A stretch of DNA of 64,000 nt, from NCBI GenBank assembly GCA_023898585.1, contig CP060229.1, forward strand, positions 75,388 through 139,387. Reading direction: 5' to 3'. Position numbers and translations under genes: made by a program. This DNA comes from Candidatus Nomurabacteria bacterium. GTDB taxonomy: Bacteria; Patescibacteriota; Minisyncoccia; Phycocordibacterales; UBA918. Of the stretch, positions 1 through 19,547 are shown piece after piece; position 1 is the stretch's first letter; each line of letters opens with the position of its first letter. The notes under the pieces were generated by a model, which saw only the letters and a program-made list of their open reading frames with translations, had not been told where the DNA came from and ran no database searches.

Positions 1-612
1 CACTGTGTGTAACTACTGTCTGCATGGTGAATACTATACAACAAAATAAAAAGGGGGCGAGTAACATATACCCCGCCCCCTTCAATTTTCACTTTTCATT
101 TTTTAAATGGTTTGCTATTACTACTCCAGACGAAGCCCGCCAAGTGAAAAAGCGTAACCAATAGTGTCCAAGGAAGTTTGAGCCACCTTATGAACTCAGA
201 GTCACCTGAGTTTTTTACAGTCCCCCTCAATTTTTCTTTCCGTAGTACACCGCTTACACTCCTCGGTTTCCGGTGAGGATTCCGATTCGCCCCATTCGTG
301 ACCTAAAACCATACAAATGATTTTGTTCGCCACATAAGAAAATATGTGAAGAAACAAAATACCGAGCAGATAGAAACCGGCAACGCAGCCTCCCACCAAC
401 CCTTCTTAGACATAATTCCACCTCCTTTGTCATTTGTTACTTCTTACGATGCTTACCCGATAATATGGTCGAGAAATATTTCAAAACGAAAACCAAGTCA
501 AAAACCAAGACGTCTGTGCTTTAGCATGTCTTTTAAAATTATCACAACAAACCGCTAGATTGAAAGTACCACGTTTTTGCATTTTGACAATGGTTTTTGT
601 ATAGTGTCCCTG

Positions 613-1794: not shown

Positions 1795-2041
1795 ACTTCT
1801 CCTTGCGATTTTTACAAAAAAGAGCTATAAACAATTAGCTTTAAGCCGATCATTTCAGAATCCCCCCGGTGTTGATAACGGCCACTTGTCATAAAAAATA
1901 CCCGTAAGGGATCAGTTCACGAACATTCCATATCATTTGGTATGTTTTCCCCTGTGGACTGATCCCTTATAGGTATTTTGCATTGTCCCATTCCATGCTA
2001 CTATCGCCTTATTACTGGCGGTATTCTTATTATCAACACCT

Positions 2042-4201
2042 ATGAAGGAAGAGCGACAATCACAAATCCCGGAGGTTTTTTTATCTCCCTACGACCCGGC
2101 GAAACACGAAAAACGTATCTATCAGCTTTGGGAAGAATCCGGATTTTTTAATCCTGATAATTTGCCAGGTGAGCGTAGCGAACCCTTCACAATCGTAATG
2201 CCTCCACCAAACGCCAACGGTTCTCTCCACGCGGGTCATGGCCTCGTTTTCGCCATCGAAGACACCATGATGCGCTTTGAACGTATGCGAGGCAAGAAAG
2301 CACTCTGGTTACCGGGTGCTGACCATGCTGGTTTTGAAACTCAAGTAGTCTACGAAAAGAAACTCCAGAAAGAAGGCCGTTCTCGTTTTCAAATGGAACC
2401 AAAGGATCTCTACAATGAGATCATGGATTTTACCATGTCAAACAAATCGATCATGGAAAATCAGATTCGTGAACTGGGCGCATCCTGCGATTGGTCTCGT
2501 TCACTTTTTACTCTTGACGATTCCGTAATCAAAATTGTTTACGACACTTTCAAAAAACTGGAGGAAGACGGACTTTTATATCGCGGAGCTCGCACTGTAA
2601 ACTGGTGCCCCAAACATCAAACTTCACTTTCCAATCTCGAAGTCAACTACAATGAAAAGACTGATCCTTTTTATTACTTCCAATACGGACCGTTTGTAAT
2701 CGGTACAGCAAGACCAGAGACAAAATTCGGCGACAAGTATGTAGTTATGCACCCGGATGATGCACGTTACGAAGATTTCCAGCATGGACAAAAAATTGAT
2801 CTCGAATGGATAAATGGACCGATTGTCGCGACCGTCATCAAAGACCAAGCGGGTGATCCAGAAATGGGCTCAGGTGTGATGACAATCACTCCTTGGCACT
2901 CCAACATTGATTTTGAAATCGCTAAACGACACGATTTAGACTACGAACAAATAATTGATTGGCGAGGTAAATTACTTCCTATCGCGGGAGAATTTGACGG
3001 AATGAACATTGAAGAAGCCCGCCAAAAAATTGTCGATAAGTTGGACAAAAAAGGATTGTTGGTAAAAATTGATGATAAGTACGACCATTCAGTTCCGTGT
3101 TGCTACAAATGCGACAAAGAAATTGAACCACAAATTCGCGAGCAATGGTTTGTTAAAATGCGACCTTTGGCGGATAAAGCCATAGAAGCGGTAGACTCAG
3201 GTAATGTCAAGTTCGTGACCAATCGCGACGAAAGGGTTTTTAGAGATTGGATGAGCAAAATTGATGATTGGAACATATCCAGACAAGTAGTTTGGGGTAT
3301 CCCAATTCCCGCCAAGGTATGTAGCGAATGCGGTCATGGCATGGTGGACTTGGAAAGCAAAATCACTAAGTGTGAAAAGTGCTCCGGTAAAGTCGAAAAA
3401 GATCCCGACACGTTCGATACATGGTTCTCATCAGGTCAGTGGCCTCTGGCAACGACCCACTATCCTGATGGAGACGATTTCAAACAACACTACCCTACTT
3501 CAGTCATGGAAACCGGCAAGGACATCATTTTTTTCTGGGTATCAAGAATGATCATGCTTGGTCTTTACAGAACCGGAAGAGTACCGTTTAAAAAAGTTTA
3601 TCTACACGGCATGGTACGTGATAAACACGGAAAGAAGATGAGTAAGAGTAAAGGCAACGTTATAGCACCAAGCGAAATTCAAGAACGTTTTGGAACCGAC
3701 GCCCTACGCATGGGCTTATTGGTTAACACCGCGCCGGGCAGTGACATGAATCTAGACCCTGATAAGGTGAATGCTTATAAAAAGTTCGCCAACAAAATCT
3801 GGAATATCACCCGTTTTGTACTGGAAAACACTTCCGACATGCCCGAGCAAGCAACCTTGACGGCCGATGATGCAGAAAATATCAAAGCTAAACTAAAAAC
3901 AACAATAGCGGAAATAACCAAGGACATGGAAAAAGACCGTTTCGACCTGGCATCGGAAAAACTTTACCATTTTGTTTGGAGTTATTTTGCGAGTGAGTTA
4001 CTGGAAGAGTCAAAACCTTTGCTTCAATCCGGTGATGCGTCAGTCAGAATATCGAGACAAAAACTTCTCAGAGAATACCTGATAACATCAATTAAACTGC
4101 TTCATCCTTTTATGCCGTTTGTTACTGAGACAATCTGGCAAGAACTGCCGGATGATATGAAAGATCACGCTGTCTTGATGGTAGCGCAGTGGCCCAAGTA
4201 A
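2042..4201 (+). CDS. valS: valine--tRNA ligase (class I aaRS), compact form lacking C-terminal coiled coil
   Basis: PPPNANGSLHAGHG (HIGH region, ValRS-like PPPN), KMSKSKGN (KMSKS), CP1 editing motif TARPETKFGDKYVVMHPDDARY. Confidence 0.8.
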   Translation: MKEERQSQIPEVFLSPYDPAKHEKRIYQLWEESGFFNPDNLPGERSEPFTIVMPPPNANGSLHAGHGLVFAIEDTMMRFERMRGKKALWLPGADHAGFETQVVYEKKLQKEGRSRFQMEPKDLYNEIMDFTMSNKSIMENQIRELGASCDWSRSLFTLDDSVIKIVYDTFKKLEEDGLLYRGARTVNWCPKHQTSLSNLEVNYNEKTDPFYYFQYGPFVIGTARPETKFGDKYVVMHPDDARYEDFQHGQKIDLEWINGPIVATVIKDQAGDPEMGSGVMTITPWHSNIDFEIAKRHDLDYEQIIDWRGKLLPIAGEFDGMNIEEARQKIVDKLDKKGLLVKIDDKYDHSVPCCYKCDKEIEPQIREQWFVKMRPLADKAIEAVDSGNVKFVTNRDERVFRDWMSKIDDWNISRQVVWGIPIPAKVCSECGHGMVDLESKITKCEKCSGKVEKDPDTFDTWFSSGQWPLATTHYPDGDDFKQHYPTSVMETGKDIIFFWVSRMIMLGLYRTGRVPFKKVYLHGMVRDKHGKKMSKSKGNVIAPSEIQERFGTDALRMGLLVNTAPGSDMNLDPDKVNAYKKFANKIWNITRFVLENTSDMPEQATLTADDAENIKAKLKTTIAEITKDMEKDRFDLASEKLYHFVWSYFASELLEESKPLLQSGDASVRISRQKLLREYLITSIKLLHPFMPFVTETIWQELPDDMKDHAVLMVAQWPK

Positions 4202-4339
4202 AAACACCAACCTAACTATACTCGTGACGGCCCGATAAGACACGATGGTCAGACCAGAAAAGAATGGTTCTCTCTCAACAGTCCCCACTTAACCGAACCT
4301 TTACTATTGTGGACACTATGTTTTGGTACAATAGTCTGA

Positions 4340-5044
4340 GTGGAATCAACCTATTTCGCCATAGCTTTTTTATCCGGACTGGTACCTGCCCTATTCTGGG
4401 TCTGGTTTTGGTTGCGAGAAGACAAAAAACGTCCCGAGCCTTATTTTTTAATAACGATATCATTTATCGCCGGCATGGCTGTAGTACCTATCGCCCTACC
4501 TTTACAACAACAGGCTTTGAATCTGTACACCGGAGATAACGTGATGTTGGTCTGGGTAATTATTGAAGAGTTATTGAAATACGCGGTTGCTTTGGTGTTA
4601 ATTTTCTGGAATAAGGAAGTAGACGAACCTATCGATATGGTCATTTACATGATCATGATCGCTCTTGGCTTTGCTGCGTTGGAAAACGCCTTATTTATAT
4701 TCAATCCACTCGTAATGGGTGATTACCTCAATTCCGTACTGACCGGCGGATTCAGATTCCTAGGAGCCAGCCTTCTTCATGTTTTAGCCTCAGGCACGGT
4801 CGGAGTTTGTCTGGCCTTGGCCTACTACAAACCAAAGCTTACCCAAGTCCTCATTGGCACGCTGGGGTTGTTCATAGCCATTGTGTTGCATGCCTTATTT
4901 AACTTTTTTATAATGGATGCAAATGGAGAGACTATTATAACCGTCTTCCTTTTTGTCTGGATGGGCATCATCCTTCTGTTTCTTCTTTTTGAAAAAATAA
5001 AACTGCTCGAACGTAGCCATAATCATCAACCAAAAATATCATGA
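4340..5044 (+). CDS. PrsW-family intramembrane glutamic protease (CPBP-like)
   Basis: multi-TM ORF with EELLKY (EExxK), FAALENALF (FxxxE) and HALFNF motifs typical of PrsW/PF13367. Confidence 0.6.
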   Translation: MESTYFAIAFLSGLVPALFWVWFWLREDKKRPEPYFLITISFIAGMAVVPIALPLQQQALNLYTGDNVMLVWVIIEELLKYAVALVLIFWNKEVDEPIDMVIYMIMIALGFAALENALFIFNPLVMGDYLNSVLTGGFRFLGASLLHVLASGTVGVCLALAYYKPKLTQVLIGTLGLFIAIVLHALFNFFIMDANGETIITVFLFVWMGIILLFLLFEKIKLLERSHNHQPKIS

Positions 5045-5553
5045 AAAAACCATCATTTTTAGAGAGACTTACCGGCAATCAAGCGGATGAGTATGATCGC
5101 GTTTTAGACGAAGACCATGAATTTGGCGAGGATGACGATTTGGCCGTCGAGGATGATAACCAGCAAGAAGATGATTGGCGAAACGAGGAGAGCGACGGCA
5201 ACGACCAGCAAGACGGGGAGTTACCGGTCGATATGTACCAGACCGACGAAATGATAGTAATTCGAGCCCTCGTTGCCGGGGTTAGTCCGAATGATCTGGA
5301 AATCTCAATTACTAGAGATATGGTGACCATGAGAGGAGTGCGTGAAGAGTACCAAGAAGCACCGGATGATGGATATTTTCATCGGGAATTGTTCTGGGGT
5401 AGTTTTTCCCGCACTCTCCTTTTGCCGGAAGAAGTAGCTATTGATGAAGCGGAAGCACAAGAGAAACACGGATTACTTGAGATCAAACTTCCCAAATTAG
5501 ACAAACACCGCTCGACCCAACTTAAAGTCAGAACAAATGCCGGACATAAGTAG
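5041..5553 (+). CDS. Hsp20/alpha-crystallin family small heat-shock protein with acidic N-terminal extension
   Basis: alpha-crystallin domain pattern (VDMYQTDEMIVIRALVAGV...ISITRDMVTMRG...LEIKLPK); Asp/Glu-rich N-terminus. Confidence 0.75.
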   Translation: MKKPSFLERLTGNQADEYDRVLDEDHEFGEDDDLAVEDDNQQEDDWRNEESDGNDQQDGELPVDMYQTDEMIVIRALVAGVSPNDLEISITRDMVTMRGVREEYQEAPDDGYFHRELFWGSFSRTLLLPEEVAIDEAEAQEKHGLLEIKLPKLDKHRSTQLKVRTNAGHK

Positions 5554-5612
5554 TGGTAAATCCTCGATGTAAACTGGTCGCTTTTTTTGGATATAGTCAA
5601 GTCAAATTGAAT

Positions 5613-5651
5613 AGAACACCAAGATCCTTTCGGCCTTGGTGTTCTTTTGTT
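5613..5651 (+). terminator. rho-independent terminator after Hsp20 gene
   Basis: 11-bp stem AGAACACCAAG/CTTGGTGTTCT followed by TTTTGTT. Confidence 0.6.
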
Positions 5652-5663
5652 ATAACCAAACTT

Positions 5664-5981
5664 TTACATGTAGGTAGCATGTGCTTCAATAATTTGAAGA
5701 ATAATCATCTTGCATTGTTGAATTGAAATAGACAGGTTTATAGAATCGCTCCCAAGATGACTATCATCCGACTGAAGAGTGAGTAATTTCTTTATGTCGC
5801 TGAACTTCTCCTCGCGAATGCTTGCTCCTTTGGGAATCCCGCTCAGCAGAGGGTCAAAGACAGCGTCACATAATGCGACAAACTTCTCTTCCTGCCCGCG
5901 AACACGTCCGCTGTCTTTCCACAAAAGACGCGTTTCTTTCAATTCCTGTAATGCTTGACGAACGTTGATTGTAGTACTCAT
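5664..5981 (-). CDS. hypothetical protein
   Basis: 105-aa ORF, no recognisable motif. Confidence 0.35.
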   Translation of the reverse strand: MSTTINVRQALQELKETRLLWKDSGRVRGQEEKFVALCDAVFDPLLSGIPKGASIREEKFSDIKKLLTLQSDDSHLGSDSINLSISIQQCKMIILQIIEAHATYM

Positions 5982-6199
5982 CTTTTCTCTAACCTCACTT
6001 TATACTTGTGAATTCAAACCTATCTACATTATAAGTTTGGTTCAAAAACAAACAATTTTCAAATCTGTGGTCTGGTTGTCTAAAATATACGGATAAAAAG
6101 ACCTGCTAGTCTTTATTTGGGCGTGATTCGAAACAAATTAAACATAAACAAAGCGCCGATAACAGATTTCGGCGCTTAGTAGCAGTCTCATTCCAACCC

Positions 6200-6385
6200 T
6201 TACTCTTCGAGTCCTACTTCAATGTATGTTGATACCACCTGACCCGAAGCTTGTCGGATGTCTACCAATTGAATAGCGGTATGATCTTCAAGCTGAACAG
6301 GTTCATCTCTAAACCCCAAAACTGTCCCGACAACTTCAGGAGTTGGTAAGCCATTCTTATTGTATGTCTTGTGAATTTTCTCCAT
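6200..6385 (-). CDS. hypothetical protein
   Basis: 61-aa ORF, no recognisable motif. Confidence 0.3.
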   Translation of the reverse strand: MEKIHKTYNKNGLPTPEVVGTVLGFRDEPVQLEDHTAIQLVDIRQASGQVVSTYIEVGLEE

Positions 6386-6804
6386 TTTATTATCCTCTAT
6401 TTATCACAGTCAAAAAGAACACCGAGGAAATCAGAAATGATCCCGCCCACTATAATTTAAACATTTTATGAACAGGAAAGAAAACAGATTTAGACAATTG
6501 AATTAGGTACCGACAAGCAGTGAGTTCAGTTACTCTTTCCTTCCCACATCAAAATTCAGGGAAATTAGAAGTTTTTCATTGTAAAGTAGAAGTCCTTGAG
6601 GTGTGCTTGGGAGCAGTTCGGTCAATCTTGGTTATGGTTTACAGGCATATTGGCGCAGGTTACTAAGTGTTTTCTCTAGCTTCGCTAGTTGCGAGCACTA
6701 AGTACCTACTGCCCCAGCTCGCCTATTTTTGTGCTAGGAGAGGCACAAAAATTATGGCTCCGCTTCACAAAGACGTACGCAAGCAAAGCAGTTTGCCTGC
6801 TAAC

Positions 6805-6838
6805 AGAAAAAACACCAGACACGTGTCTGGTGTTTTTT
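6805..6838. terminator. bidirectional hairpin terminator (3' of tRNA-Phe)
   Basis: perfect palindrome AACACCAGACACGTGTCTGGTGTT flanked by A6 and T6 runs. Confidence 0.6.
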
Positions 6839-6852
6839 CTGTTACGTCTTTG

Positions 6853-6925
6853 TGCTTGGGAGCAGGCTCGAACTGCTGACCCTTCGCTCTTCAGGCGAAT
6901 GCTCTACCAACTGAGCTACCCAAGC
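6853..6925 (-). tRNA. tRNA-Phe(GAA)
   Basis: reverse complement GCTTGGGTAGCTCAGTTGGTAGAGC...CTGAAGA...GGTCAGCAGTTCGAGCCTGCTCCCAAGCA; cloverleaf with GAA anticodon; CCA not encoded. Confidence 0.85.
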
Positions 6926-7024
6926 ATGTTTTCCCGACCTATAATTTAAATAAGTAGTGGTTGCTATTCTACCTTTTTCTCGGTTTTTTTCAAATTTTTC
7001 GCTTTTATTCTTATCCAGCTATTA

Positions 7025-7321
7025 TTAATTGGAACCACCTTTAGCCGCTTCGTAAAATTGCTTCCAGCCGGGTATTTCTTGTAAGCCCTGCTGAAAAGTC
7101 TCAAAAGAAGACCCAAAAGATTCGAAATAAGGTTCGATTACGTAGTAGTAGAGTATGAAAGGAACACCGATTAAGAATAACGACCAGGCCACTCTTACCC
7201 AAAAAGACCAAATCGAACGTCTATTAAGAGTTCTGAGGAGTTGATTGTTTTCTGTCAACAATCGTTGGTTTTCTAGTACTAAATCACGCAATAACTGATT
7301 CTCGTCTTTTTCGGGCGACAT
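7025..7321 (-). CDS. hypothetical small membrane/coiled-coil protein
   Basis: ORF 7025..7411 trimmed to internal ATG (MSPEKDENQLL...); C-terminal TM helix. Confidence 0.35.
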   Translation of the reverse strand: MSPEKDENQLLRDLVLENQRLLTENNQLLRTLNRRSIWSFWVRVAWSLFLIGVPFILYYYVIEPYFESFGSSFETFQQGLQEIPGWKQFYEAAKGGSN

Positions 7322-7462
7322 AATTAAAGTATAGCAGACTGTGCGTGAACAAAATTGAAAATATGCTAGAGTATGTTGACTTTTTAAAGTAATGAACATT
7401 TTGTAAGGCAATCAAACAAATTTTATATGTAACCCTAAAGACATGTTTAACAACAATACCTT

Positions 7463-7534
7463 GCCCTCGTAGTTCAATGGATAGAACAGCACACTCCTAA
7501 CGTGCTAATGTAGGTTCGATTCCTACCGAGGGCA
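7463..7534 (+). tRNA. tRNA-Arg(CCT)
   Basis: GCCCTCGTAGTTCAATGGATAGAAC...CTCCTAA...GTAGGTTCGATTCCTACCGAGGGCA; perfect 7-bp acceptor; anticodon CCT (A31:C39 mismatch in anticodon stem). Confidence 0.8.
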
Positions 7535-9048
7535 CAAAACAAGACTTCTGACGAAGTCAACGAGCGCGGAGAAGCCGCGCGAGAAAAAGAAAAAGGAGAA
7601 ATACGCCGTCGCGTAGCGACGAAATGGCTGGGCGAGGGCACGGAAAAGTGGGCGGTTTTGTCACGAACCACATGGTTCGTTCCGATTTTTTGGACGAAGT
7701 CGGCAATTTCGGAGAAATTGTCAGACGAGGACAAAAAAGCGGCTTGTTTCGTATCCAAAACCCACTCCCGCAAGGGTTCGACCCAAGTATTTCCCCGACG
7801 TTCACAATCTTTCTTCTTCTCGTTCAAAGTGGCGAGAGAGCGCATAGTAGTGTCTTTCTTTTTTAGATAAATCTCTTTCGGTATGTCTCCGTCCAAATAC
7901 GCAGATACTAGCTTCTCCATGCGCTCCTCGTCCGCTTTGATTTTGGCAGAAAGATTTTGAACATCACTTTGCGATGAGTTAGTTTCTTCACGCTCCCATT
8001 CGTCAATTTTCGCCAACATCCAGTCAGCGTACTCATCGCAAAGTGAAATTGTTTGAAGCCGATCCTTAATTTGTGCAACGAGGTCTTTCTCTTGTACATA
8101 CCCTTGCGAGCAAGCGCCGTGCTTCTTGGTACAGCGATAGTAGCGATACACTCCACCATTGCCCTTAGCGTGTTGCGCCGTGAACATGCCGCCGCACTCA
8201 CCACAACGGAACAGTCCTAAAAACGGAAAATCATGGCGGTTTCTTCGCATCGGCGCACGCGCTTTGCTCGCAAGAACTTTTTGCACGGCTTCAAACAATG
8301 TCGGGGAAATAATTGGTTCAAATGTGCCGTCAAACCATTCTTCATTGTGACGAACAAATCCGAGATAAGCACGATTGCTCAAAAGGTGTTTGATGGCACA
8401 TTTGGCAAGTGGCTTTCCTTTCGAACTGGTAACGCCTAAATCCACCAAAAACTGCGACAAAGAAACCAGTCCATGTGTACCTTTCGCATATTCCTCAAAA
8501 GCGTGCTGCACAATCTTGGCGTTCACCTCATGCGGTTCTATCTGCCGAGTACGCGGATTGTTCACATACCCAAATGGCGCTTTTGTGAGCCACTCACCTC
8601 GTCGCAGTTTTTGGCGGATGCCTCTTTTCACATTTTGTACCAGATTGTCTGAGTAGTATTTACTTTGCCCAAAAGCCACTTGCAACATAAAGAGCCCTTG
8701 TGGAGTGGGTTCAAACCAAAATGTCGGAAAGCGCAAAGACGCGATTCTCTCGGTATCTACGGCATATATGACGCGCCCACCGTCAATCGAATTGCGCGCC
8801 AATCTATCGGGATGCCAACCAAGAATGCCCTGCGCTTCTCCCGATTCAATACGCGTCATCATCTCATTAAAAATCGGACGACCGGGTGTCTTTGCGCTTT
8901 TCGACTCTTGAAACTCCGCTAGGATTTCAAGATTTTCTTTACGCGCAAATTCACGTAGTTCAAACAACTGGGCTTCAATACTCATGACTTGCTTATCGTC
9001 ATCTTCTGTTGATTTGCGAGCGTATAGAAAATATTTTGGTTTGATCAT
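7474..9048 (-). CDS. large serine recombinase (resolvase/invertase catalytic domain + recombinase domain + zinc ribbon)
   Basis: MIKPKYFLYARKSTEDDDKQ... with catalytic Ser in YARKST, Cys cluster CGECGG...C, ~524 aa; start at ATG 9048 (the ORF upstream extension lies in repeat sequence); 3' end overlaps tRNA-Arg on the opposite strand. Confidence 0.85.
   Translation of the reverse strand: MIKPKYFLYARKSTEDDDKQVMSIEAQLFELREFARKENLEILAEFQESKSAKTPGRPIFNEMMTRIESGEAQGILGWHPDRLARNSIDGGRVIYAVDTERIASLRFPTFWFEPTPQGLFMLQVAFGQSKYYSDNLVQNVKRGIRQKLRRGEWLTKAPFGYVNNPRTRQIEPHEVNAKIVQHAFEEYAKGTHGLVSLSQFLVDLGVTSSKGKPLAKCAIKHLLSNRAYLGFVRHNEEWFDGTFEPIISPTLFEAVQKVLASKARAPMRRNRHDFPFLGLFRCGECGGMFTAQHAKGNGGVYRYYRCTKKHGACSQGYVQEKDLVAQIKDRLQTISLCDEYADWMLAKIDEWEREETNSSQSDVQNLSAKIKADEERMEKLVSAYLDGDIPKEIYLKKKDTTMRSLATLNEKKKDCERRGNTWVEPLREWVLDTKQAAFLSSSDNFSEIADFVQKIGTNHVVRDKTAHFSVPSPSHFVATRRRISPFSFSRAASPRSLTSSEVLFCALGRNRTYISTLGVCCSIH
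7597..7721 (+). repeat. core+Y repeat (direct copy of 13838..13945; core GGCACGGAAAAGTGGGCGGTTTTGT at 7633..7657)
   Basis: about 120 bp near-identical to 13838..13945; the core is present inverted at 9095..9119. Confidence 0.8.
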
Positions 9049-9059
9049 AATTTTGAAAA

Positions 9060-9600
9060 AATTATTTTTGGATACGAAACAAGAAACAAAACCGCCCACT
9101 TTTCCGTGCCTCACCCTGTCCGATTTCGTCTCACAGCGACGGGCTGTATTTGGTTTTGTTTCCTCGCGCCGCTCGGTCGCTATTAGTTGACCTTCGGACG
9201 AAGAAGTCTTGTTTTGTGCAGAAATACTGACCTTTGCTCGAACCCATTTCGAGAACCGATGAACATACCATGATCGTTCACGCGCCGAGCGCGTGGTGAT
9301 GCGGACGCGAAGCGTACGCATTGGGGAATACATGTTTGGGCGCGCTCCGTCCTCTCACTCCGTCGTCGCTAAGCGTGCCGTACGGCCACGCATTTCTTCG
9401 CCTCCGTTCGTGCGGCTCCTCGCAAAACCCCATTTTCCTCCGCCGAAAGGCCAAAATATTGAAAAGGAAATGGTTGGTTTTGCTTGCGTAGGGCTGCTTT
9501 ATCAACATGTGCTGTATTATATAACATTGGATAGTAAACAAAAGTAAGTATAATTAAAACTTGTTAATGTTATGACGACTGCAATAGAAAAGCTGGCTAA
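9060..9600 (-). repeat. core+X inverted-repeat arm (reverse complement matches 13381..13900)
   Basis: blockwise reverse-complement alignment of 9061..9600 to 13381..13900 with several small indels; also inner IR 9064..9090 matching 7738..7762. Confidence 0.8.
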
Positions 9601-9785
9601 GAATATTAAGATTATTAGGATTAAAACATGTCACAGGGTGACATCTGTAGAGATGCAGCAAAGGCAGGACCGTTCTTTCATACATACAACATTGAGGCTG
9701 GCAAATCAAAAATAACGCTTTGAAAACATTGAACGTATCGCTAAGGCTTTCGGTGTTACTTGTGATGAGCTTTTTGAATAAACGC

Positions 9786-10777
9786 ATGTCTCAAGAGGGA
9801 GGAAAAAAGAAAATACTGTCACATCATAATGTTTGCGGGATGTGGGGGTCTCGATACACTGTTTGAGTGGTTTTGAATCCCTTGAAAAAAAGTACGAGGA
9901 AAAGAAATTTTTATATAGATAATGCTAAAACGTTGATCCATCACTTGTTTAACGTTTAAATTGTACTTCAACCACGAGATAGAATGCGGTAGGATAGTCC
10001 ATGATATAGATGGTACACATAACTCTATTTTGTCGCTCATTCCAAAGTCGACGGATGTAGTTTGGGTGGCTTCCCCTGCCAAGAATTTAGTCAAACAGGC
10101 AAAAGACGGAGAAGGCTTCAACAGCGGAGAAAGGAGTTCTATACGCAGTATGGCGGAAGTCATAAAGAGAACAAAACCGATGGTGAATTTATAGACAGAA
10201 AACGTTAAATGATCTGCTCACTGATTTTGATGGTGGTACTGCCATCGATATTATTAAGGAAGATTTTGCTTCGGCGGTTATCATGTAAATCACAAACTGC
10301 TGGTTTGCGGATTTGATTATGGTGCCTCAAACACGAGAACAAGTGATAATTGTTGGAACAAAAAAGGTGTTTTGCCGAGATTTGAAGATAGTGATTACCA
10401 AAGCCAACACATGCCAATAAGCATGTTTCTGTAGGAGAAGCGCTGTCGATCTAGAAAGCGTCGAGGAAGGTGGCTTTTCCAATCATTATTGGTCGAAGGC
10501 AAAAAAGAATAAGGGGCAAGGAAATAATGTTATTCACAAAGACAAACCGGGGCCAACAATGAGAACAGAACATCATGGAAACATAGAATTTCACTGGAAC
10601 GGAAAACGTAGATTATCAGCGCGTGAAGCTGCTCGTATACAATCATTTCCTGATGATATGGAATTTCTACCATCTACCTCTCAAGCATATAAACAAATAG
10701 GAAATGCCGTACCCCCTATTTTAGGGTGGCACGTGGCAAAATCCGTAGAATCATTCCTAAACAGAAACTTGAAATAA
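9786..10777 (+). pseudogene. dcm: DNA (cytosine-5)-methyltransferase, frameshifted (Dcm-like)
   Basis: C5-MTase motifs in three different frames: motif I MFAGCGGLDTLFEWF (then TGA), motif IV GGFPCQEFS, motif VIII PQTRERVIIVG, motif X/C-terminus RRLSAREAARIQSFPDD...QIGNAVPP (ORF 10559..10777). Confidence 0.75.
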
Positions 10778-10778
10778 C

Positions 10779-11771
10779 ATGATATACGCAGAAAAAGAAA
10801 ATCCGAGCGAAGAAGTTTTTCTAGAGTTACTGGAAAATTCAAAAAATGGTTTGATTGAAAAATTGCAAAGCAATGGACCTTTGCCGAACTCAACGCAATT
10901 CGAAGTTTTAGTGTGTGAGGAAATGCAAGCAAAAGCCATTGGTACTGAATTCGAGGGAACAATAAGGCAAACAGGGGTTGCTGCTTTTCCAGATATTGTA
11001 GCCAATGGTTATTTTGGCGTAGAAGTAAAAATGACCATAAAAGATCACTGGCGCTCTACCGGCAACAGTGTTCTGGAAAGTTTACGAGAAGAAGATGTTG
11101 AGAAGATTTATATTATGTTTGGTAAACTGGGCGGTACTCCCGATGTGAAATACCGTTTATACCAAGAATGTTTGCCGTCTGTTAGCGTGACCCATTCTCC
11201 TCGTTATCAAATAGACATGAATTTAGCTGTTGGAAAATCTATTTTTGATAAGATGGGTATTTCTTACGATGAATTGAGAACAAGTGGAGATACCATCCAA
11301 CAAATTAAGACGTATTATCGAAGTCAGCTCCAAGAAGGTGAAGGTTTGTGGTGGATTGACGAGGAATCAGAAGCACCTTCACCAGTGATTAAACAATTTC
11401 GAACTTTGGAAACAGAGGATAAAGAAAGATTTAAAATTGATTGCATGATCTTATTTCCTGAATTGTTTAGAAATAGAGCAAATTACGATCGCGCCGCCGC
11501 ATATCTTACCACCGAGTTTGGTGCTGTCTCAGCAAGCCTGAGGGATGAGTTTAGTGCTGGTGGTAGACAAGAAGTAATGGTTGCGAGAGAAAAAAGAAGT
11601 GTGTCGCAAGTACTCTCGCAACTTCGAGGATATGCCCCACAAATCACAGCTCGAATCCAAGAGCTTGACGAGGGTCTTTTAAAATTTTACTGGAAAGTCT
11701 CGTCCATAGAAGAAGACAGGATTCAACAATGGAAAGGTTTGATTGACGAAGTGCGCGGTCGGTCTTGGTGA
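10779..11771 (+). CDS. putative type II restriction endonuclease (PD-(D/E)xK fold)
   Basis: 330-aa ORF starting 1 nt after the dcm stop; FPDIVANGYFGVEVK fits PD-x(n)-ExK nuclease motif; R-M operon context. Confidence 0.5.
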   Translation: MIYAEKENPSEEVFLELLENSKNGLIEKLQSNGPLPNSTQFEVLVCEEMQAKAIGTEFEGTIRQTGVAAFPDIVANGYFGVEVKMTIKDHWRSTGNSVLESLREEDVEKIYIMFGKLGGTPDVKYRLYQECLPSVSVTHSPRYQIDMNLAVGKSIFDKMGISYDELRTSGDTIQQIKTYYRSQLQEGEGLWWIDEESEAPSPVIKQFRTLETEDKERFKIDCMILFPELFRNRANYDRAAAYLTTEFGAVSASLRDEFSAGGRQEVMVAREKRSVSQVLSQLRGYAPQITARIQELDEGLLKFYWKVSSIEEDRIQQWKGLIDEVRGRSW

Positions 11772-11865
11772 TGATCTTCCCTCAGAAGTTTTTGAATCAG
11801 GTCATGAAGAAGCAGAACTAGCAACAACCTAAATCGTAATTTTTCAAAACAAAGCTAAAATTCGG

Positions 11866-12244
11866 ATACGTTAACGGTTCGTGAGCGGTCAAAGCGCATG
11901 TCGCTAATACGTTCAAAATCAACAAAGTTTGAGAGGATTTTATTGAAGACTTTAAAAAGAACACGTAAAGCATTTACCTCCAAACGATACGAGCGTTTTT
12001 GAGTAAGCCAGACGTGGTGTTTGGCAAACACAAGGTCTGTGTATTTCTCGATAATGTGGGCTTAATTTTGGCATGGCTGGCAATATCGAGATGTAAAGCA
12101 TTTACTTATCAAAGATGATTTCTGGAGAGAGAAAATTGAAAGAAATAGGAAAACGTGACAAAAAGTAACACGTAAGCTTCGTGCCGAGGGGTGGATTGTG
12201 TTTCGTTTTTGGGAGCATAAGCTTAAAAAGGCATCATCAGGCTA
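11866..12244 (+). pseudogene. vsr: very-short-patch repair endonuclease Vsr, frameshifted remnant
   Basis: MSLIRSKSTKFERILLKTLKRT, KPDVVFGKHKVCVFLDN and C-terminal LRAEGWIVFRFWEHKL in different frames with intervening stops. Confidence 0.6.
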
Positions 12245-12371
12245 ATTGCATAGAAAAAGTTTTGGATAGTTTAAAATAAAGTTATGAAAGTCACTGAACT
12301 AAAAGAAAACAGAACTTCCCAGAGAAAAGATGGAAAAGTATGGAGCAAAACGACTCAAAATTTTGAGTTGA

Positions 12372-12900
12372 TTGCGATTGTTTTGGGTTCTGGAATCAAG
12401 GGTTGTAACGATGCTGGAATTAGCAAGAAAAATTGAAAAACTCATTATTCAAAAATCAGCAAACAACGTTACCTTTGAAGATTTGCGGAAGATTCGCGGG
12501 TTGGGAAAAACAAAAGCTATACAAGTTCTTGCCATAATCTCTCTCGTCGACCGCTTAGGAAGCGGACAAAATTTCAAACATATTATCCATTAAAGACGTT
12601 TGAATAATGTTCTGATTTTCGATCGTCAAAAAAAAGAACACGTCGTTGCTTTTTATTTTGATACTCAACAAAAACTAATAGAGGCGAATAATTTCCGTTG
12701 GGACGCTCGACACATCTCTTGCGCACCCGGGTGAGTTTTGAACCTGCCTTGCAACCTCTGCCGCGGGTGTGGTCTTAGCACACAACCACCCCTCAGGAAG
12801 TGTTGATCCATCGGATGATGACATTGCCATTACGAAACGCATGGCGGACGCAGGCGATTTACTAGGCATTACACTTATCGATCATTATCGTCTCCGATAA
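12372..12900 (+). pseudogene. radC: RadC-like JAB/MPN domain protein, frameshifted
   Basis: N-terminal HhH region TFEDLRKIRGLGKTKAIQVLAI (ORF 12372..12593); JAMM motif VVLAHNHPSGSVDPSDDDIAITKR in another frame at about 12770..12900. Confidence 0.65.
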
Positions 12901-13380
12901 AGAATTTCGAGCAATAGACTAAATCAAGGTTGGAAAATAACTCTATTTAAAGTAAAATCGGGAAAGAGCGGTGGTTTAGGAGATGTGTTCACTGTCATTC
13001 GCGCTTACGCCAGATAAAGGTGGTCACTTATCTCCTTTATCAGAACATTTAACTTTAAGCTTACAATGCCTAGAACCAAATGTCGTCCGACTCGGACTAC
13101 TGGTAAGCCAGGACCAAAACGGTCACGGTCAAACCGCATAAACGCTCTACACCGAAACCACTGAAGAAGTGCTAGTAGGAAGATTCGGACGGCGACGTAA
13201 GTCGTCGTTCGTTTCGTTAGGGTAAACCTCGCACAAAGCGAACATCGGACAGTACCGAGCAAGCCATGCGAACGAATGTGAGGCGGCCATGCGAGGTAGT
13301 GGCGGAGCGTTGTGAGCGTTGGTTAATATTACCCACCGGCTTGAACGACGTGCCGCCTTGGGCGCCACAAGGACGACGAA

Positions 13381-13945
13381 AGGCGAAGTGAAAAGCTTTC
13401 TATTGCAGTCGTCATAACATTTCCACAGTTTTAATTATACTTACTATTGTTTTACTATCCAATGTTATATAATACAACACATGTTGATAACTCACCCCTG
13501 CACCCACCAACCATTTCCTTTTCAATATTTTGGCCTTCGGCGGAGGGGTTTGGGGAGGAGCCGCATTAAAAAGGCAAAGGAAATGGTGGTGGGATGCACG
13601 CGCGCAGCGATAGCGGAGCGCGTCCCAAGGCGCATGTATTCCCCAATGCGTACGCTTCGCGTTCGCATCACCACGCGCTCAGCGCGGCACGATCATTGTC
13701 CTTTCTCGAAATGGGTTCGAGCAAAGGTCAGTATTTCTGCACATTCAGAAACTTCTCGTTCCGTGAGGTCGCTACGCGACAAAGCGGCGCGGGAGCCAAA
13801 ACTAAAACAGCCGTTCGAGAGTCTCCCAGACTCCCTCACCTCCGCGACGAAATCAGACGGAGCGGGCACGGCGAGGCGGGCGGTTTTGTCACGAACCGTA
13901 TGGTTCGTTCAGACTTTTTTGACGAAGGAGGCAATTTCGGAAAAT
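13381..13945 (+). repeat. X+core+Y composite repeat (copy of the alternative recombinase junction)
   Basis: 13381..13900 equals reverse complement of 9060..9600; 13838..13945 equals 7597..7721; ORFs 13481..14011 and 13594..13950 are translation artefacts of this repeat. Confidence 0.85.
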
Positions 13946-14031
13946 ACTAGCAACGGGAGTCGATTCTTACCCTGTTTACTCAATACCATCATGCATACCG
14001 TAGAAATGTGACGGCTGATTATATTCTGAGT

Positions 14032-14385
14032 TTAGACGTCAGTTGTTGTTTGAATCTTATTCAACCTACTATGCGTATAAGTGAATACATCCACCAACAC
14101 CTTAATGTACAATACGTATACAATAAACTGAATTCCATTGTATACCACTTGTCCAGCTTCAAGTGGCAAGAGCACGTAGATAAAAGGTGCCGCAACATAT
14201 TCACTGAAGGGGAAAAAGCCAATAACGTTGTAATTAAAAAGATTGCCCAGATATGCCGGATTTGCTTGTAATAACGGCGGGAGTATCAGCATCGCAACAC
14301 TGTAGACAACCATCCCCCACAGCGCCCATTTTAGATATTCTTTTGCTATCGTCATGACGGTATCATAACACACTTCCGACCCCAA
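14032..14385 (-). CDS. hypothetical membrane protein
   Basis: 117-aa ORF with hydrophobic segments. Confidence 0.3.
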   Translation of the reverse strand: MGSEVCYDTVMTIAKEYLKWALWGMVVYSVAMLILPPLLQANPAYLGNLFNYNVIGFFPFSEYVAAPFIYVLLPLEAGQVVYNGIQFIVYVLYIKVLVDVFTYTHSRLNKIQTTTDV

Positions 14386-17882: not shown

Positions 17883-19547
17883 TTATTGCGGAGCGATCAC
17901 ATCTGTTTTTAAGATTCGTGATTGAAAAGAACGGTATATTTCTTTCAGTTCCGGGGAGTTACCGACGGCATATGTCAAAACAATAGCAACTATACCCATG
18001 ACACCGGCCGTTATCCCCTGGATCATTATTCCAACAAAAGTTTCTTGGTTTATTCCCCCCACCACAAAAACCAAAGTCACGTAGGCAGTGACCGCCCCAG
18101 CAATGGTCGCCACACCGGAATGTACAAAAAGTCTCGCCAGTGGACGAAGGTTTATGTTAAAGATTCTTTTTGATAAGACTATAAGTGCAATGAGTTGGAT
18201 ATATTGACCAAGCACAAAAGCTAAGGCCAGGACCAAGACTTCAGAACCCGCAACCCCAGTCAAGCGAAAAGTTTCATTCAAGAATGATTGTAGAGCGGTG
18301 TATTCCGTGTATAAAAACATAAAGCCCGTGGCTAGCGCGACGGAAATTACACCTCCGGCGAGAGCAACAAAAAAAGGAAGGACTGTGCGACCGCCAGCAT
18401 AAAAAGCTCTTATCAACAAAAGCAAAACGGCTTGCGCCAAAAGCGAAATAACAAAAATCGCCAACATAGCGGCCGTCAACCTGGTATCGCTCCAGTTAAA
18501 CTCCCCACTTCCAAGAAGCACGCGCACAATCTGAGCACGCAGAACAATAACCAAACCAATGATAGGAATTGACCAGAAAAATATGTGTCTCAAAGCGGTT
18601 AAGAGTTGTTTGTTGAAGCCCTGTAGGTCACTTTTAGCGTGTAAATAAGAAAGAGTCGGAAAAGCGGCAACAGAGTAACTCATGCCTATAATTACCAAAG
18701 GGACGGATTGCAAATTGAAAGCAAACTGAAAAACCGATACCGACCCAACCGACATCACGGAAGCCATGCCGATTAAAATAAGTAGCACAATTTGATTGAT
18801 TGATAATGTTAGCGCTCTTGGTACGGAGACCAGAAGAATGTTCTTTATTAATCCCCAATCAATTTTGGACGTCGTAAAGAAAGAATATTCGCTCTTTAGC
18901 ACAAACGGTAACTGAATTGCCAGATGTCCCACAGCTCCCAAAACCACCCCGACGACGAGACCGACGAGACCGACTGCAGGATAAAAGAAAGTAATCCCTA
19001 AAATGATTCCAACATTGTACAAAAGTGGGCTGAGGGCATACAGGATAAAACGATGGTTCATCTGTGTTACAACCCCGCACAAACTGGATAAACCCAGCAA
19101 AAACGGTTGGATAAGCAAGATACGCAACAACAGAATCAGACTCTCATACTCTTCCCCAAAACCGGGAAATATATGCAGAACATACCAAGGCGCTAAAAGC
19201 GCCAACAATCCGGCTACCAGCGTATACACCAACAAGAATAGCGAGAACATTTGCGACAAAACTTTCGCGCCACCGGCTGGGTTATTATCCTCAGCGTATC
19301 TGTTCACGAAAGGCAACAGCACATATATCGAAAGAACAGAAGCAAAAAGCACAAATAACAAATCTGGGATGCGAAAAGCGGCATAGTAAAGATCAAGTTC
19401 AATCCCCGCGCCAAAAGTGTGAGCGAGAAGCCTGTCTCTAACAATCGCTAAAATTTGTGATCCAAAAGCAAATAATGCGAGTATGTAAGCAGCCTGATGT
19501 AAACCACGCACCTCACGGTACACAAAGTTGAAAACTCGCTTAACCAT
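17883..19547 (-). CDS. murJ: lipid II flippase MurJ (MviN)
   Basis: 554-aa polytopic protein, N-terminal MurJ pattern (ILAIVRDRLLAHTFGAGIELDLYYAAFRIPDLLF). Confidence 0.8.
   Translation of the reverse strand: MVKRVFNFVYREVRGLHQAAYILALFAFGSQILAIVRDRLLAHTFGAGIELDLYYAAFRIPDLLFVLFASVLSIYVLLPFVNRYAEDNNPAGGAKVLSQMFSLFLLVYTLVAGLLALLAPWYVLHIFPGFGEEYESLILLLRILLIQPFLLGLSSLCGVVTQMNHRFILYALSPLLYNVGIILGITFFYPAVGLVGLVVGVVLGAVGHLAIQLPFVLKSEYSFFTTSKIDWGLIKNILLVSVPRALTLSINQIVLLILIGMASVMSVGSVSVFQFAFNLQSVPLVIIGMSYSVAAFPTLSYLHAKSDLQGFNKQLLTALRHIFFWSIPIIGLVIVLRAQIVRVLLGSGEFNWSDTRLTAAMLAIFVISLLAQAVLLLLIRAFYAGGRTVLPFFVALAGGVISVALATGFMFLYTEYTALQSFLNETFRLTGVAGSEVLVLALAFVLGQYIQLIALIVLSKRIFNINLRPLARLFVHSGVATIAGAVTAYVTLVFVVGGINQETFVGIMIQGITAGVMGIVAIVLTYAVGNSPELKEIYRSFQSRILKTDVIAPQ

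Follow-up and report, generated by a model that had tools for sequence, protein, structure and literature searches.

A putative 6.2-kb island carrying a large serine recombinase gene, next to the 3′ end of tRNA-Arg in a Candidatus Nomurabacteria bacterium

The window—the whole stretch of 64,000 nucleotides analysed here, taken from contig CP060229.1—carries a tRNA-Arg(CCT) gene and the gene of a large serine recombinase (LSR), as the preliminary description of this DNA had said; the two are convergent and overlap by 62 nt. Three LSR domains are recognized in the protein: Resolvase (PF00239, 5.8e-22), Recombinase (PF07508, 4.8e-13), and Zn_ribbon_recom (PF13408, 4.1e-12). Residues R11, S13, D81, R82, and R85 are invariant across 22 homologues; the gene is intact and not the pseudogene that had been considered. 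Its nearest solved relative is SPbeta SprA/YokA (1.9e-18), and its scores fall well short of the NCBIfam cut-offs for CcrB and XisF. The tRNA side of the locus comprises the following features, named by the roles they would have in an integration:

7463–7535 (+): tRNA-Arg(CCT), putative integration target (ARAGORN and Rfam, 66.9 bits)
7474–9048 (−): LSR gene, 524 aa, intact (Pfam domains and catalytic residues)
7532–7716: copy C, attL plus antisense C-terminal codons of the LSR
7532–7535 (+): attL identity block GCAC (from comparing the three junctions tRNA–GCAC–J, U_A–GCAC–J, and U_B–GCAC–relic)
7532–7549 (+): J, island-side (P′) arm at the presumed crossover, 18/18 against the reverse complement of 9202–9219
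7550–7636 (+): V_C, variable spacer; antisense, the variable C-terminal tail of the LSR
7637–7661 (+): K, the 25-bp core of the preliminary description and inner end of the inverted duplication; antisense VRDKTAHFSVP
7662–7716 (+): Y, hairpin (7663–7680) and T-run (TCCGATTTTTT) on the tRNA-sense strand (terminator scan)
7743–7760 (+): inner 18-mer inside the LSR codons (V)LDTKQA, partner of 9066–9083

Copy C is protein-coding on the other strand. J read antisense gives the LSR motif S-E-V-L-F-C-A, with L(S/T)xxEVSFC conserved among homologues; K is kept as the protein motif VRDK(S/T)A(R/H)F; and Y encodes the LSR residues FSEIADFVQKIGTNHVVR. A hairpin with T-run stands at the place of Y in 33 of 65 loci and might substitute for the displaced terminator of the tRNA. 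V_C is 95% identical to both V arms of another locus (L001) and about 74% identical to V_A, its counterpart upstream of the LSR gene. There, a second copy of these elements lies in inverted orientation:

9066–9083 (−): inner 18-mer within the leader of the LSR, 17 nt before the ATG, conserved in family leaders
9086–9592 (−): copy A, inverted attP-like copy forming the LSR leader
9086–9219 (−): J-V_A-K, inner part of copy A, repeating the LSR 3′ end in inverted orientation except for the 81-nt segment containing Y
9216–9219 (−): GCAC block of the internal attP-like site
9220–9592 (−): U_A, P arm of this site and upstream leader, with GTTCGAGCAAAGG 24 nt from GCAC; aligned to U_B

Copy A is an intact, inverted, attP-like element found family-wide: 67 of 75 loci have an equivalent inverted repeat (median 134 nt, 97.8% identity), and the attP core is conserved among 24 sequences. 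The inner 18-mer arms covary between loci—in L003 the codons change T to M and the leader is changed to match. Beyond copy A follow an apparently decayed cargo, annotated by PADLOC, PHROGs, and reading of the sequence, and the far end of the putative island:

9593–13396: cargo, apparently decayed
~9650–9780 (+): Xre-type HTH remnant with internal stop
10559–10777 (+): C5-methyltransferase C-terminal fragment (PADLOC MTase_II, 6.6e-23)
10779–11771 (+): type II restriction enzyme (PADLOC REase_II, 4.3e-49)
~12284–12900: RadC-like gene, frameshifted
13397–13738 (+): U_B, P arm on the attR side, 78.6% identical to U_A
13739–13742 (+): attR identity block GCAC
13739–13944 (−): relic (J_B-V_B-K_B-Y_B) of the 3′ end of another, older LSR gene, aa 445–506 with an in-frame stop

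All repeats of the preliminary description are real and far beyond chance, with their coordinates off by 4–9 nt. The 25-bp core GGCACGGAAAAGTGGGCGGTTTTGT, placed at 7633–7657 and 9095–9119, is indeed inverted around the recombinase with 25/25 identity, yet lies at 7637–7661 (+) and 9086–9110 (−); shuffles give 0 matches expected by chance, and a diverged third copy (21/25) is found at 13865–13889 (+). The second, inner inverted repeat exists as the 18-mer CTTGTTTCGTATCCAAAA at 7743–7760 (+), reverse complement at 9066–9083, shifted from the reported 7738–7762 and 9064–9090. A further perfect 18-mer, GCACAAAACAAGACTTCT, had been missed; it begins within the final 4 nt of the tRNA (7532–7549) and has its reverse complement at 9202–9219. 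The segment 13381–13945, described as an upstream arm X, the core, and a downstream segment Y, does show the proposed homologies within corrected limits: 13397–13889 (+) matches 9592–9086 (−) rather than 9600–9060, at about 79 to 82% identity in the alignment and with indels whose lengths are not multiples of 3, and 13844–13944 is an 81% identical direct copy of 7616–7716 rather than 7597–7721, with weaker direct homology from 7532 onward. The divergence point was given precisely, as the homology of the arms ends right after GGGCGGTTTTGT.

The LSR belongs to a large and apparently undescribed recombinase family, found in ultra-small (CPR) bacteria, with general tRNA-gene targeting. More than 6000 homologues are found at E≤1e-10; the 120 listed are 66 to 88% identical and come from Patescibacteria wherever the annotation names a taxon. 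Relatives occur in GTDB species genomes (n=586), and among 2.9 million viral contigs the family is all but missing. Of 84 related loci, 60 have the 3′ end of the LSR gene next to a convergent tRNA, with 21 anticodons among them, and 4 have it next to tmRNA; LSRs 88 to 93% identical to that of the window sit beside Arg-CCT, Arg-TCT, and Gly-TCC genes, all with a GCA+C end. The cargo of different loci is unrelated. Five cargo segments are common to several loci and have the same orientation in all of them, which speaks against the suggestion that the X arms make the 3.8-kb cargo invertible.

In 29 loci the attL, attR, and attP-like junctions can be read, and their only common sequence is a block of 4 to 9 nt at the tRNA end, beyond which attR passes into unrelated chromosomal sequence, often a hairpin with T-run. 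The breakpoints lie about 100 nt from the 25-bp core, at which the crossover had been placed, and never at the core itself. Judging from these junctions, the crossover probably occurs within or at the block at the tRNA 3′ end—GCAC at 7532–7535 in the window—and the exact position of the crossover dinucleotide is one that we infer. The distance between the T-loop-like GTTCG and the block is 24 nt in the internal attP-like site and 18 nt in the tRNA; an offset of +6 recurs in 35 of the 42 loci compared, and one of +5 in 4. The B half-site would correspond to the T-arm and acceptor end of tRNA-Arg(CCT), with the T-arm as the likely recognition element. In otherwise identical relics, the five nucleotides that follow GCAC on its right are ATTCA in the window and in L109 and AAAAT in L108, a difference that a single fixed crossover inside GCAC cannot explain.

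Contigs of the same species differ at precisely this position. One of them (L111) is 99.66% identical over 7.5 kb and diverges exactly after 7535, continuing into the 3′ end of another LSR subfamily. These contigs thus bear a different island from the tRNA 3′ end onward. L108 and L109 have the relic in common with the window and carry different U arms. At the protein level the relic shares 61% identity with the resident LSR (tblastn, E 1.8e-12; FSEIASFVKKV-stop-TNHTVRDKTARLAVPAPSDFVA) and matches P0007, the LSR of the syntenic locus L002. Copy B (13397–13944) consists of attR (U_B) joined to 206 nt left from the 3′ end of an older LSR gene, with an in-frame stop, and is a product of tandem accretion and not the inversion junction it was taken for. 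Full or partial tandem islands with the same layout are found in L003, L015, and L026. Neither an excised circle nor an empty tRNA-Arg site was recovered for the species of the window, and the island of the window itself was not found in other samples. The two U copies elsewhere in the family have a median identity of 99.5%, while the arms of the window are unusually diverged (U 78.6%, V ~74%); given this and the decayed cargo, this copy of the island may no longer be mobile.

From these in silico sequence comparisons we consider it probable that ~7536–13738 (6.2 kb) is a small integrative genomic island whose own LSR inserted it at the 3′ end of tRNA-Arg(CCT). The sequences themselves show the island anatomy, its family-wide recurrence, where the junctions lie, the polymorphism between strains at 7535, and the relic; that the LSR catalysed the integration events is a likely step beyond them. 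A mobile LSR island had been one of two options in the preliminary description, and it is the one that agrees with an architecture recurring at 21 tRNA kinds and tmRNA, with the junctions in 29 loci, and with the polymorphism within the species. The predicted circular form would carry attP as U–GCAC–J, where U ends with the T-loop-like GTTCGAGCAAAGG and the J side would be the last conserved stretch of LSR coding sequence. Its chromosomal target would be the T-arm and acceptor end of the tRNA, with the exchange taking place in the few nt common to the tRNA end and U. On one side, attL would run tRNA–GCAC–J-V-K-Y and then into the LSR gene, which is directed toward the tRNA, so that the C-terminal codons of the LSR would overlap, antisense, a new 125-nt tRNA trailer and also the hairpin and T-run of Y. 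On the other side, attR would read U_B–GCAC–former sequence 3′ of the tRNA, which here would have been the attL side of an older L002/P0007-type island; since 206 nt of it survive, 13397–13944 looks like X-core-Y. Directly upstream of the LSR gene, the second, inverted copy U_A–GCAC–J-V_A-K (9086–9592) serves as its leader, and because of this copy the gene is bracketed by inverted repeats with the core as their inner end.

The existence of this second attP copy is not accounted for by the island model and counts as a point against it. The tandem layout, in turn, seems to need recombination of attP with attL, or alternatively integration of a fused double circle; canonical serine integrases are not known to carry out an attP × attL reaction.

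An LSR gene between long inverted repeats might also be a cassette (~7550–9200) that flips itself between two states, one in which the LSR is read from its own leader and one in which it lies directly downstream of and codirectional with the tRNA. Such inversion could proceed by homologous recombination or by LSR-catalysed exchange of attL with the internal attP, whose products would again be attL and attP and, hence, reversible. The gene would stay intact in either orientation, and the tandem islands suggest that attL is acceptable to the enzyme as a partner. Within a locus the arms of the family-wide repeat (67 of 75 loci) are 96 to 100% identical, and V and U vary freely between loci, which points to ongoing exchange between the arms. 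The flipped layout (tRNA or tmRNA, J-V-K, ATG) was found, with a repeat of ~130 nt, in L014, a MEGAHIT k141 contig, and also in 10 contigs from metagenomes, at 9 different targets. However, this makes 11 flipped contigs against 64 normal ones—1 against 64 among genome loci—and every long or complete contig is normal (L006, L028, L053, L078). No flipped contig extends past the far repeat, four end exactly there, and inverted-repeat artefacts do occur in the assemblies of these samples, for example the fold-back contig L110. Integration via the second attP could equally give the flipped layout, and copy B, coming from a different LSR lineage, is left unexplained. Flipping of the LSR gene is hence a possible but rare and unproven event, as artefacts may explain the flipped contigs; as an account of the locus we regard it as unlikely, if worth keeping in mind.

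Far less credible is the other option of the preliminary description, an invertase-type switch with crossover at the core, in which 13381–13945 would be the alternative junction produced by inverting 7658–9094. It was suggested by the perfectly identical (25/25), inverted cores, by copies A and B parting exactly after the core, and by the X-core-Y order of copy B. The core is, however, kept as LSR codons (VRDKTAHF) in all homologues, and the homology of the arms runs through it to J. The core of copy B has 4 mismatches in 25 positions, and the Y and V of that copy stem from another LSR lineage and contain a stop codon. Together with the junctions at the tRNA end, the divergence of L111 after 7535, and a 524-aa LSR in place of a small Hin/Gin-type invertase, this makes the switch highly improbable. 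X-core-Y might instead be a ~450-nt noncoding RNA gene with its own promoter, structured body, and terminator—either the target of the element or a leader/antisense RNA controlling the LSR by pairing of the 5′ leader with the mRNA 3′ end. The fold of copy B is better than that of its shuffles (z = −4.5), whereas that of copy A is not (z = −0.45). Copy B is GC-rich within an AT-rich genome, the long U hairpin retains its pairing despite different sequences in several loci, Y offers a hairpin and T-run, and the leader is complementary to ~150 nt in the 3′ part of the ORF. On the contrary, a search of Rfam gives no match even at E≤5, conservation of U across the family is confined to its ~45-nt attP core, and the 3′ third is LSR coding sequence. 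Where the arms differ, G:U-compatible changes are not in excess (52 versus 71, p = 0.10), so the identity of the arms is kept at the DNA level. We therefore consider such an RNA gene improbable, though less so than the switch.

The island model places the LSR next to phage large serine integrases such as SPbeta SprA/YokA, the Listeria A118/LI integrase, phiC31, and Bxb1, with which it shares the resolvase catalytic, recombinase, and zinc ribbon plus coiled coil domains, short attP and attB with few central bases in common, and an integrase gene at one end of the element; sequence similarity to characterized members is low (SprA, 1.9e-18). Structures of LI integrase place the attP half-site motifs farther from the centre than the attB motifs, and the motif of the family described here likewise lies farther out in attP (+6). 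Unlike these phages, the family uses the 3′ ends of many tRNA and tmRNA genes and not one protein-coding gene, its attP overlaps the C-terminal codons of the integrase itself, a second inverted attP copy flanks the LSR gene, and its elements are islands of 3 to 9 kb.

A serine recombinase gene between inverted repeats is also found in the Hin, Gin, Cin, and Pin systems—with the recombinase gene of Hin inside the invertible segment. Those enzymes have ~190 aa, a C-terminal helix-turn-helix, 26-bp sites, and a Fis-bound enhancer; here, on the contrary, the LSR has 524 aa, the repeats measure 130 to 600 bp, and the junctions point to integration. As an analogy only, the predicted circle resembles the yeast 2-micron plasmid in having two unique arcs and long identical inverted repeats with a recombinase site in each. 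The 2-micron plasmid has 599-bp inverted repeats and FLP, a tyrosine recombinase acting on identical sites, whereas the element described here uses a serine recombinase, lacks replication genes, and has a circular form predicted from its anatomy.

Islands of tyrosine integrases as collected by Islander/TIGER share the intact tDNA, the adjoining integrase gene, strain-variable cargo, and tandem accretion. They differ in the recombinase family, and no tRNA fragment is duplicated here, owing to a crossover at the extreme 3′ end. In the ssrA-specific islands of Dehalococcoides, the serine recombinase gene dsiB lies on the reverse strand beside attL, 3′ of the tmRNA gene, with tandem, decayed members downstream of the target and variable cargo (PMC3146451). 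The reverse-strand recombinase at attL, the tandem islands, and the variable cargo all recur here, and four loci of the family are at tmRNA. The Dehalococcoides islands bear a 20-bp ssrA direct repeat and a six-gene integration module with a second small recombinase, DsiA, and no inverted attP copy is described for them (PMC3146451). The family described here has that copy and combines a single LSR with a block of 4 to 9 nt and at least 21 tRNA species besides tmRNA.

The gene at 7474-9048 (-) encodes a large serine recombinase (LSR) of 524 amino acids, in which a profile search finds Resolvase, Recombinase, and Zn_ribbon_recom domains.

Domains of the LSR, with Pfam accession and significance of the match
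PF00239, resolvase catalytic domain, 5.8e-22
PF07508, recombinase domain, 4.8e-13
PF13408, zinc-ribbon domain, 4.1e-12

The reading frame of the gene is intact, and the catalytic R11, S13, D81, R82, and R85 are present; the motifs YARKS13T and D81-R82-L-A-R85 are invariant across an alignment of 22 homologues. SprA of SPbeta is matched over residues 9-413 (1.9e-18), and the protein stays far below the cut-offs for CcrB, CcrC, and XisF. It is a member of the large serine recombinases that is distant from the characterized ones. At E<=1e-10, a homologue search returns more than 6000 relatives, of which the 120 listed share 66-88% identity and belong, where named, to the Patescibacteria (CPR). 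Exact-protein look-ups gave no match for the LSR itself (524-aa and 619-aa versions) or for the restriction enzyme of the island. Among 2.9 million viral contigs, only one distant match (40% identity) was found—the family is essentially absent there, and a phage origin was rejected.

The inverted repeats that the preliminary description placed around this gene are real, with positions that needed small corrections. The 25-bp core GGCACGGAAAAGTGGGCGGTTTTGT, for which 0 matches are expected in shuffled sequence, is identical at 25/25 positions between 7637-7661 (+) and 9086-9110 (-), and a third copy (21/25 identical) lies at 13865-13889 (+). The inner 18-mer spans 7743-7760, with its reverse complement at 9066-9083. 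A further perfect inverted 18-mer, GCACAAAACAAGACTTCT, had been missed: it is found at 7532-7549 and as reverse complement at 9202-9219, and starts within the last four bases of tRNA-Arg(CCT) (7463-7535). The long inverted arms proposed earlier were recovered as well, with ~79-82% identity between copy A (9592->9086, -), the leader of the LSR gene, and copy B (13397-13889, +) at the far end of the island. Their homology stops exactly after GGGCGGTTTTGT, past which copy B is a direct copy of 7662-7716. For the description of these copies, we distinguish an outer arm (U), the outer 18-mer (J), a variable spacer (V), the core (K), and a hairpin with T-run (Y). J and K are perfect between the window's arms, although V in between is only ~74% identical (leader copy versus the copy beside the tRNA gene). 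A reading of U as a protein-coding gene was discarded, as copies A and B differ by indels whose lengths do not keep a triplet frame (not multiples of 3) and the ORF at 13481-14011 has no Pfam match.

The alignment of the 22 homologues is conserved through FLSSSDNFSEIASFVQKIGTNxxVRDKSARFxxPxPSxFVAxRR...L(S/T)xxEVSFC, after which the C-termini run into (G)(I/N)RT—the antisense reading of the tRNA T-loop. The conserved C-terminal stretches are the reverse complements of Y, K, V, and J. What had been described as arm, core, and downstream segment is hence, read antisense, the recombinase's own C-terminus. N-terminally extended gene calls such as GGFVSCFVSKNNF place the core also upstream of the start codon of homologues, which makes the inverted repeat a family-wide feature. 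On the sense strand of the LSR, the order is U-J-V-K-inner 18-mer-LSR ORF...Y'K'V'J'-tRNA (antisense). Following K, the leader skips 81 nt, Y included, and homology resumes at the inner 18-mer.

This anatomy was followed through 84 loci, 4 of them identified by exact-protein look-ups and the other 80 taken from the GTDB species genomes, in which 586 relatives were found. The 3' end of the LSR gene abuts a tRNA gene convergently in 60/84 loci, covering 21 anticodons, and a tmRNA gene in 4/84; in the window as in these loci, the integrase gene thus adjoins an intact tRNA or tmRNA gene at one end of the island. At one locus, the abutted tRNA carries the anticodon TTA and the ARAGORN label 'tRNA-Stop'. 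LSRs that are 88-93% identical to the window's sit at Arg-CCT, Arg-TCT, and Gly-TCC genes, all ending GCA+C. Of the 75 loci whose upstream sequence is long enough, 67 have the J-V-K inverted repeat between leader and 3' coding end, with a median length of 134 nt and a median identity of 97.8%. A contiguous second repeat, U, is found in 30/50 loci (111-538 nt, median identity 99.5%), its partner copy lying 1.1-6.1 kb further upstream with unrelated cargo in between. About 35 of the 80 genome contigs start within the leader repeat, 100-320 nt ahead of the LSR gene, so that the element often breaks contigs in metagenome-assembled genomes of CPR bacteria. Two loci, L001 (11578-11661 and 11787-11870) and L014 (2038-2082 and 2236-2280), bear duplicated 5' parts of the target tRNA, separated by a similar insert of ~110-150 nt (GGATATTTTG...CTTGCG..GCTCCCA); this insert is a different element associated with the same tRNA genes.

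The preliminary description had assigned the crossover to the 25-bp core. To locate it, three junctions were lined up in 29 loci: U to J in the leader, tRNA 3' end to J, and far U to unrelated chromosome. The sole stretch common to all three is a block of 4-9 nt corresponding to the last tRNA bases (e.g., GCAC, GCACCA, TCAC, CCACCA, or CACCGCA).

Positions of the GCAC block in the window
7532-7535, attL
9216-9219 (-), internal attP-like site
13739-13742, attR

[quoted passage not shown] No junction in the 29 loci maps to the core, which lies ~100 nt from the GCAC block and is no more than the inner end of the inverted duplication. On this comparative evidence, attP and attB are short sites with only a small central overlap in common, and hybrid attL and attR sites flank the element, as for a serine integrase. 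The far end of the window's island does not repeat a displaced fragment of the tRNA gene, as only 4 nt (GCAC) are shared and the crossover falls at the very end of the tRNA; a 24-nt tRNA-Arg fragment is present in the syntenic locus L002. Serine integrases carry out a unidirectional attP x attB reaction that is reversed only with a directionality factor, for which no candidate was identified here. The tandem islands described below hint at attL as a possible reaction partner, which would be atypical for these enzymes. Two further models were dropped: a folded single-strand attP as in CTX phage, since double-strand exchange within the stem of such a hairpin would leave the chromosome broken, and a two-step excision via the internal attP, for which no route was found.

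The P arm of the attP-like site bears a conserved GTTCG(A/C)GCAAAGG at 24 nt from the block; the T-loop GTTCGA of the tRNA lies at 18 nt. This offset is +6 in 35/42 loci and +5 in 4/42. In serine integrases, as established by structural work, the zinc-ribbon motif stands ~5 bp further out in attP than in attB half-sites. The offset would hence fit recognition by the enzyme of the T-arm in attB and of a mimic of this arm in attP, which would explain the breadth of targets.

Copy B had been taken as the alternative junction of an inversion (13381-13945). Its distal part, 13944-13738 (-), translates to FSEIASFVKKV*TNHTVRDKTARLAVPAPSDFVA...EVSECA with an in-frame stop, corresponding to LSR residues 445-506 at 61% identity to the resident LSR. 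It matches the type of LSR that occupies the same tRNA-Arg site in L002. Copy B is therefore the attR arm of the present island (U_B), joined at GCAC to the attL-side relic of an older island—a tandem accretion followed by decay. The same tandem layout with a full second LSR is found in L003 and L026, and in L015, a J-like sequence likewise follows the attR junction.

Contigs of the same species from other samples, 99.2-100% identical to the window flanks, show that the content of this site varies. One of them, L111 (GCA_020428745.1), is 99.66% identical over window 1-7535 and unrelated beyond 7535, so that this island boundary coincides exactly with the proposed crossover; directly after its tRNA-Arg, at 9599-9847, stands the 3' end of an LSR from another subfamily (...NWLEPFEKWINEAQNLAQIA...). 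That subfamily, ~41% identical to the window's LSR, also occurs in tandem with the main family in L003, L008, L016, and L074. Two others, L108 and L109, share the relic with the window and differ in their U arms, and the 5 nt right of GCAC differ between otherwise identical relics. Different islands therefore occupy the tRNA-Arg site within one species—a content polymorphism at a single site among close relatives. Neither an empty site nor a circle junction was recovered in the same-species contigs. Of the earlier alternative between a switch and a mobile island, the island is hence borne out by junctions and strain polymorphism, and a switch is not demonstrated.

Apart from the intact LSR ORF, the island looks old, to judge by its genes and arms. 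U_A and U_B (the arms of copies A and B) are only 78.6% identical against the family median of 99.5%. Beside U_A, at ~9650-9780 (+), an Xre-type HTH gene interrupted by a stop codon survives as a remnant; its place next to U_A is taken in L002 and L004 by an intact, divergently oriented HTH gene. At 10559-11771, a C5 cytosine methyltransferase is reduced to a 72-aa C-terminal fragment, followed by an intact type II restriction enzyme gene (PADLOC 4.3e-49), and a RadC-like gene at ~12284-12900 is frameshifted. A restriction nuclease without its cognate methylase is expected to be toxic, except where it has lost activity or protection comes from another source. The cargo of L004 (7300-9650) comprises an Erm/KsgA-like rRNA methyltransferase, an aminoglycoside-phosphotransferase-like gene, and an HTH gene. 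The window thus holds an old, partly decayed island beside the relic of a previous one, with no demonstrated switch.

On the tRNA-sense strand, a terminator scan finds in Y a 7-bp hairpin followed by TCCGATTTTTT, embedded in the codons for QKIGTNxxVR; an equivalent hairpin with T-run stands just after K in 33/65 loci. The far-U junction of the 29-locus comparison often continues into a hairpin with T-run resembling the tRNA's original terminator. Since integration shifts this terminator to attR, we infer that Y may act as its substitute. In the leader copy, which is devoid of Y, transcription from U would then reach the LSR gene. A consensus scan of the window found no convincing inward promoter in U_A. 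The best hexamer pair, TGGATA-16-TATAAT, is sigma-70-like, lies in the conserved AT-rich outer segment of U_B at 13434-13461 (-), and points outward into the cargo; read from sequence, the corresponding part of U_A has these two hexamers as well, spaced by 15 nt, and L004 has a good inward TTGACT-16-TACAAT.

At the RNA level, U does not correspond to a described structured family: Rfam 15 covariance models match only tRNAs, whether the whole window is searched at gathering score or 7300-14200 at E<=5. A 95-nt tRNA-Leu(CAG) called by ARAGORN at 18471-18565 is absent from the Rfam tRNA model matches at gathering score. Pairing of the leader with the 3' end of the ORF as RNA was rejected, as G:U-compatible differences between the arms are not in excess (52 vs 71, p = 0.10); homogenization therefore acts on DNA. 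That the arms are nearly identical within a locus and diverge freely between loci means that they keep exchanging sequence.

Such exchange raises the possibility that the LSR cassette inverts physiologically, which we regard as unlikely. The long, nearly identical arms provide a geometry that permits inversion, and one genome contig, L014, shows the flipped order of tRNA-Glu, J-V-K, inner 18-mer, and ATG. A pattern designed for this layout gave 18 matches in a metagenome collection, 10 of them genuine, next to tmRNA and eight tRNA species plus one tRNA cut off by the contig end; all of these contigs end inside the LSR gene or at its end. However, 64 genome loci are normal against this 1 flipped, and all long or complete contigs are in the normal state. 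Of the 11 flipped contigs overall, four terminate precisely at the far repeat and none runs past it. Artefacts might account for them, as inverted-repeat artefacts do occur in these data: L110, a public 34-kb MEGAHIT contig of the same species, folds back exactly on a 44-nt perfect palindrome beside tRNA-Phe (6801-6844) through assembly or library preparation. Integration through the second attP could equally give the flipped layout. Inversion of the cargo between the U arms, also envisaged in the preliminary description, was assessed on 5 segments shared between loci, all in the same orientation, in a comparison that is underpowered.

The puzzle of the family is why a second, inverted attP and ~130 nt of the gene's own 3' end are kept as leader, for which there are four candidate answers. 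The second attP might be an operator for autoregulation, by analogy with the resolvase that binds res in Tn3/gamma-delta; it might permit integration in either orientation; it might serve a conservative attL x attP inversion; or it might let the circular form flip back and forth, in the manner of the 2-micron plasmid. A more encompassing model would have CPR-wide integrases read the T-arm and acceptor end, universal among tRNA and tmRNA genes, via the T-loop mimic of attP, 6 bp further out, and hence use almost any tDNA. The inverted, identical attP leader would place the gene between attL and an intact attP and so allow a conservative attL x attP inversion, which yields attL and attP once more and could flip the gene reversibly between its own and the tRNA promoter. 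As a whole, we consider this model improbable.

Serine integrases are valued for genome engineering because their sites are short, and to our knowledge, an individual integrase is normally confined to a single fixed target. A large natural family that uses the conserved ends of many different tRNA genes, and of tmRNA genes too, would show how the choice of target can be generalized, and an attachment arm that imitates the tRNA T-loop at a shifted register is a concrete hypothesis on this choice. Mobile elements of CPR/Patescibacteria are, as far as we know, poorly characterized. Here, the family emerges as a common CPR vehicle for small accessory cargo—restriction-modification and resistance-like genes in the present cases—and explains a frequent cause of assembly breaks in these genomes. 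A serine-integrase family at tRNA genes contradicts what the Islander authors stated in 2014 (PMC4383910), namely that targeting of tRNA genes is not known for integrases of the serine family. Full-text searches of the literature yielded no description of this LSR family or its inverted attP. Switches of the Hin/Gin type employ a serine recombinase of ~190 aa with a C-terminal HTH, in contrast to the 524-aa LSR of the window. The closest described system is that of the Dehalococcoides ssrA islands (PMC3146451), which likewise bear a serine recombinase beside attL and occur as tandem islands.
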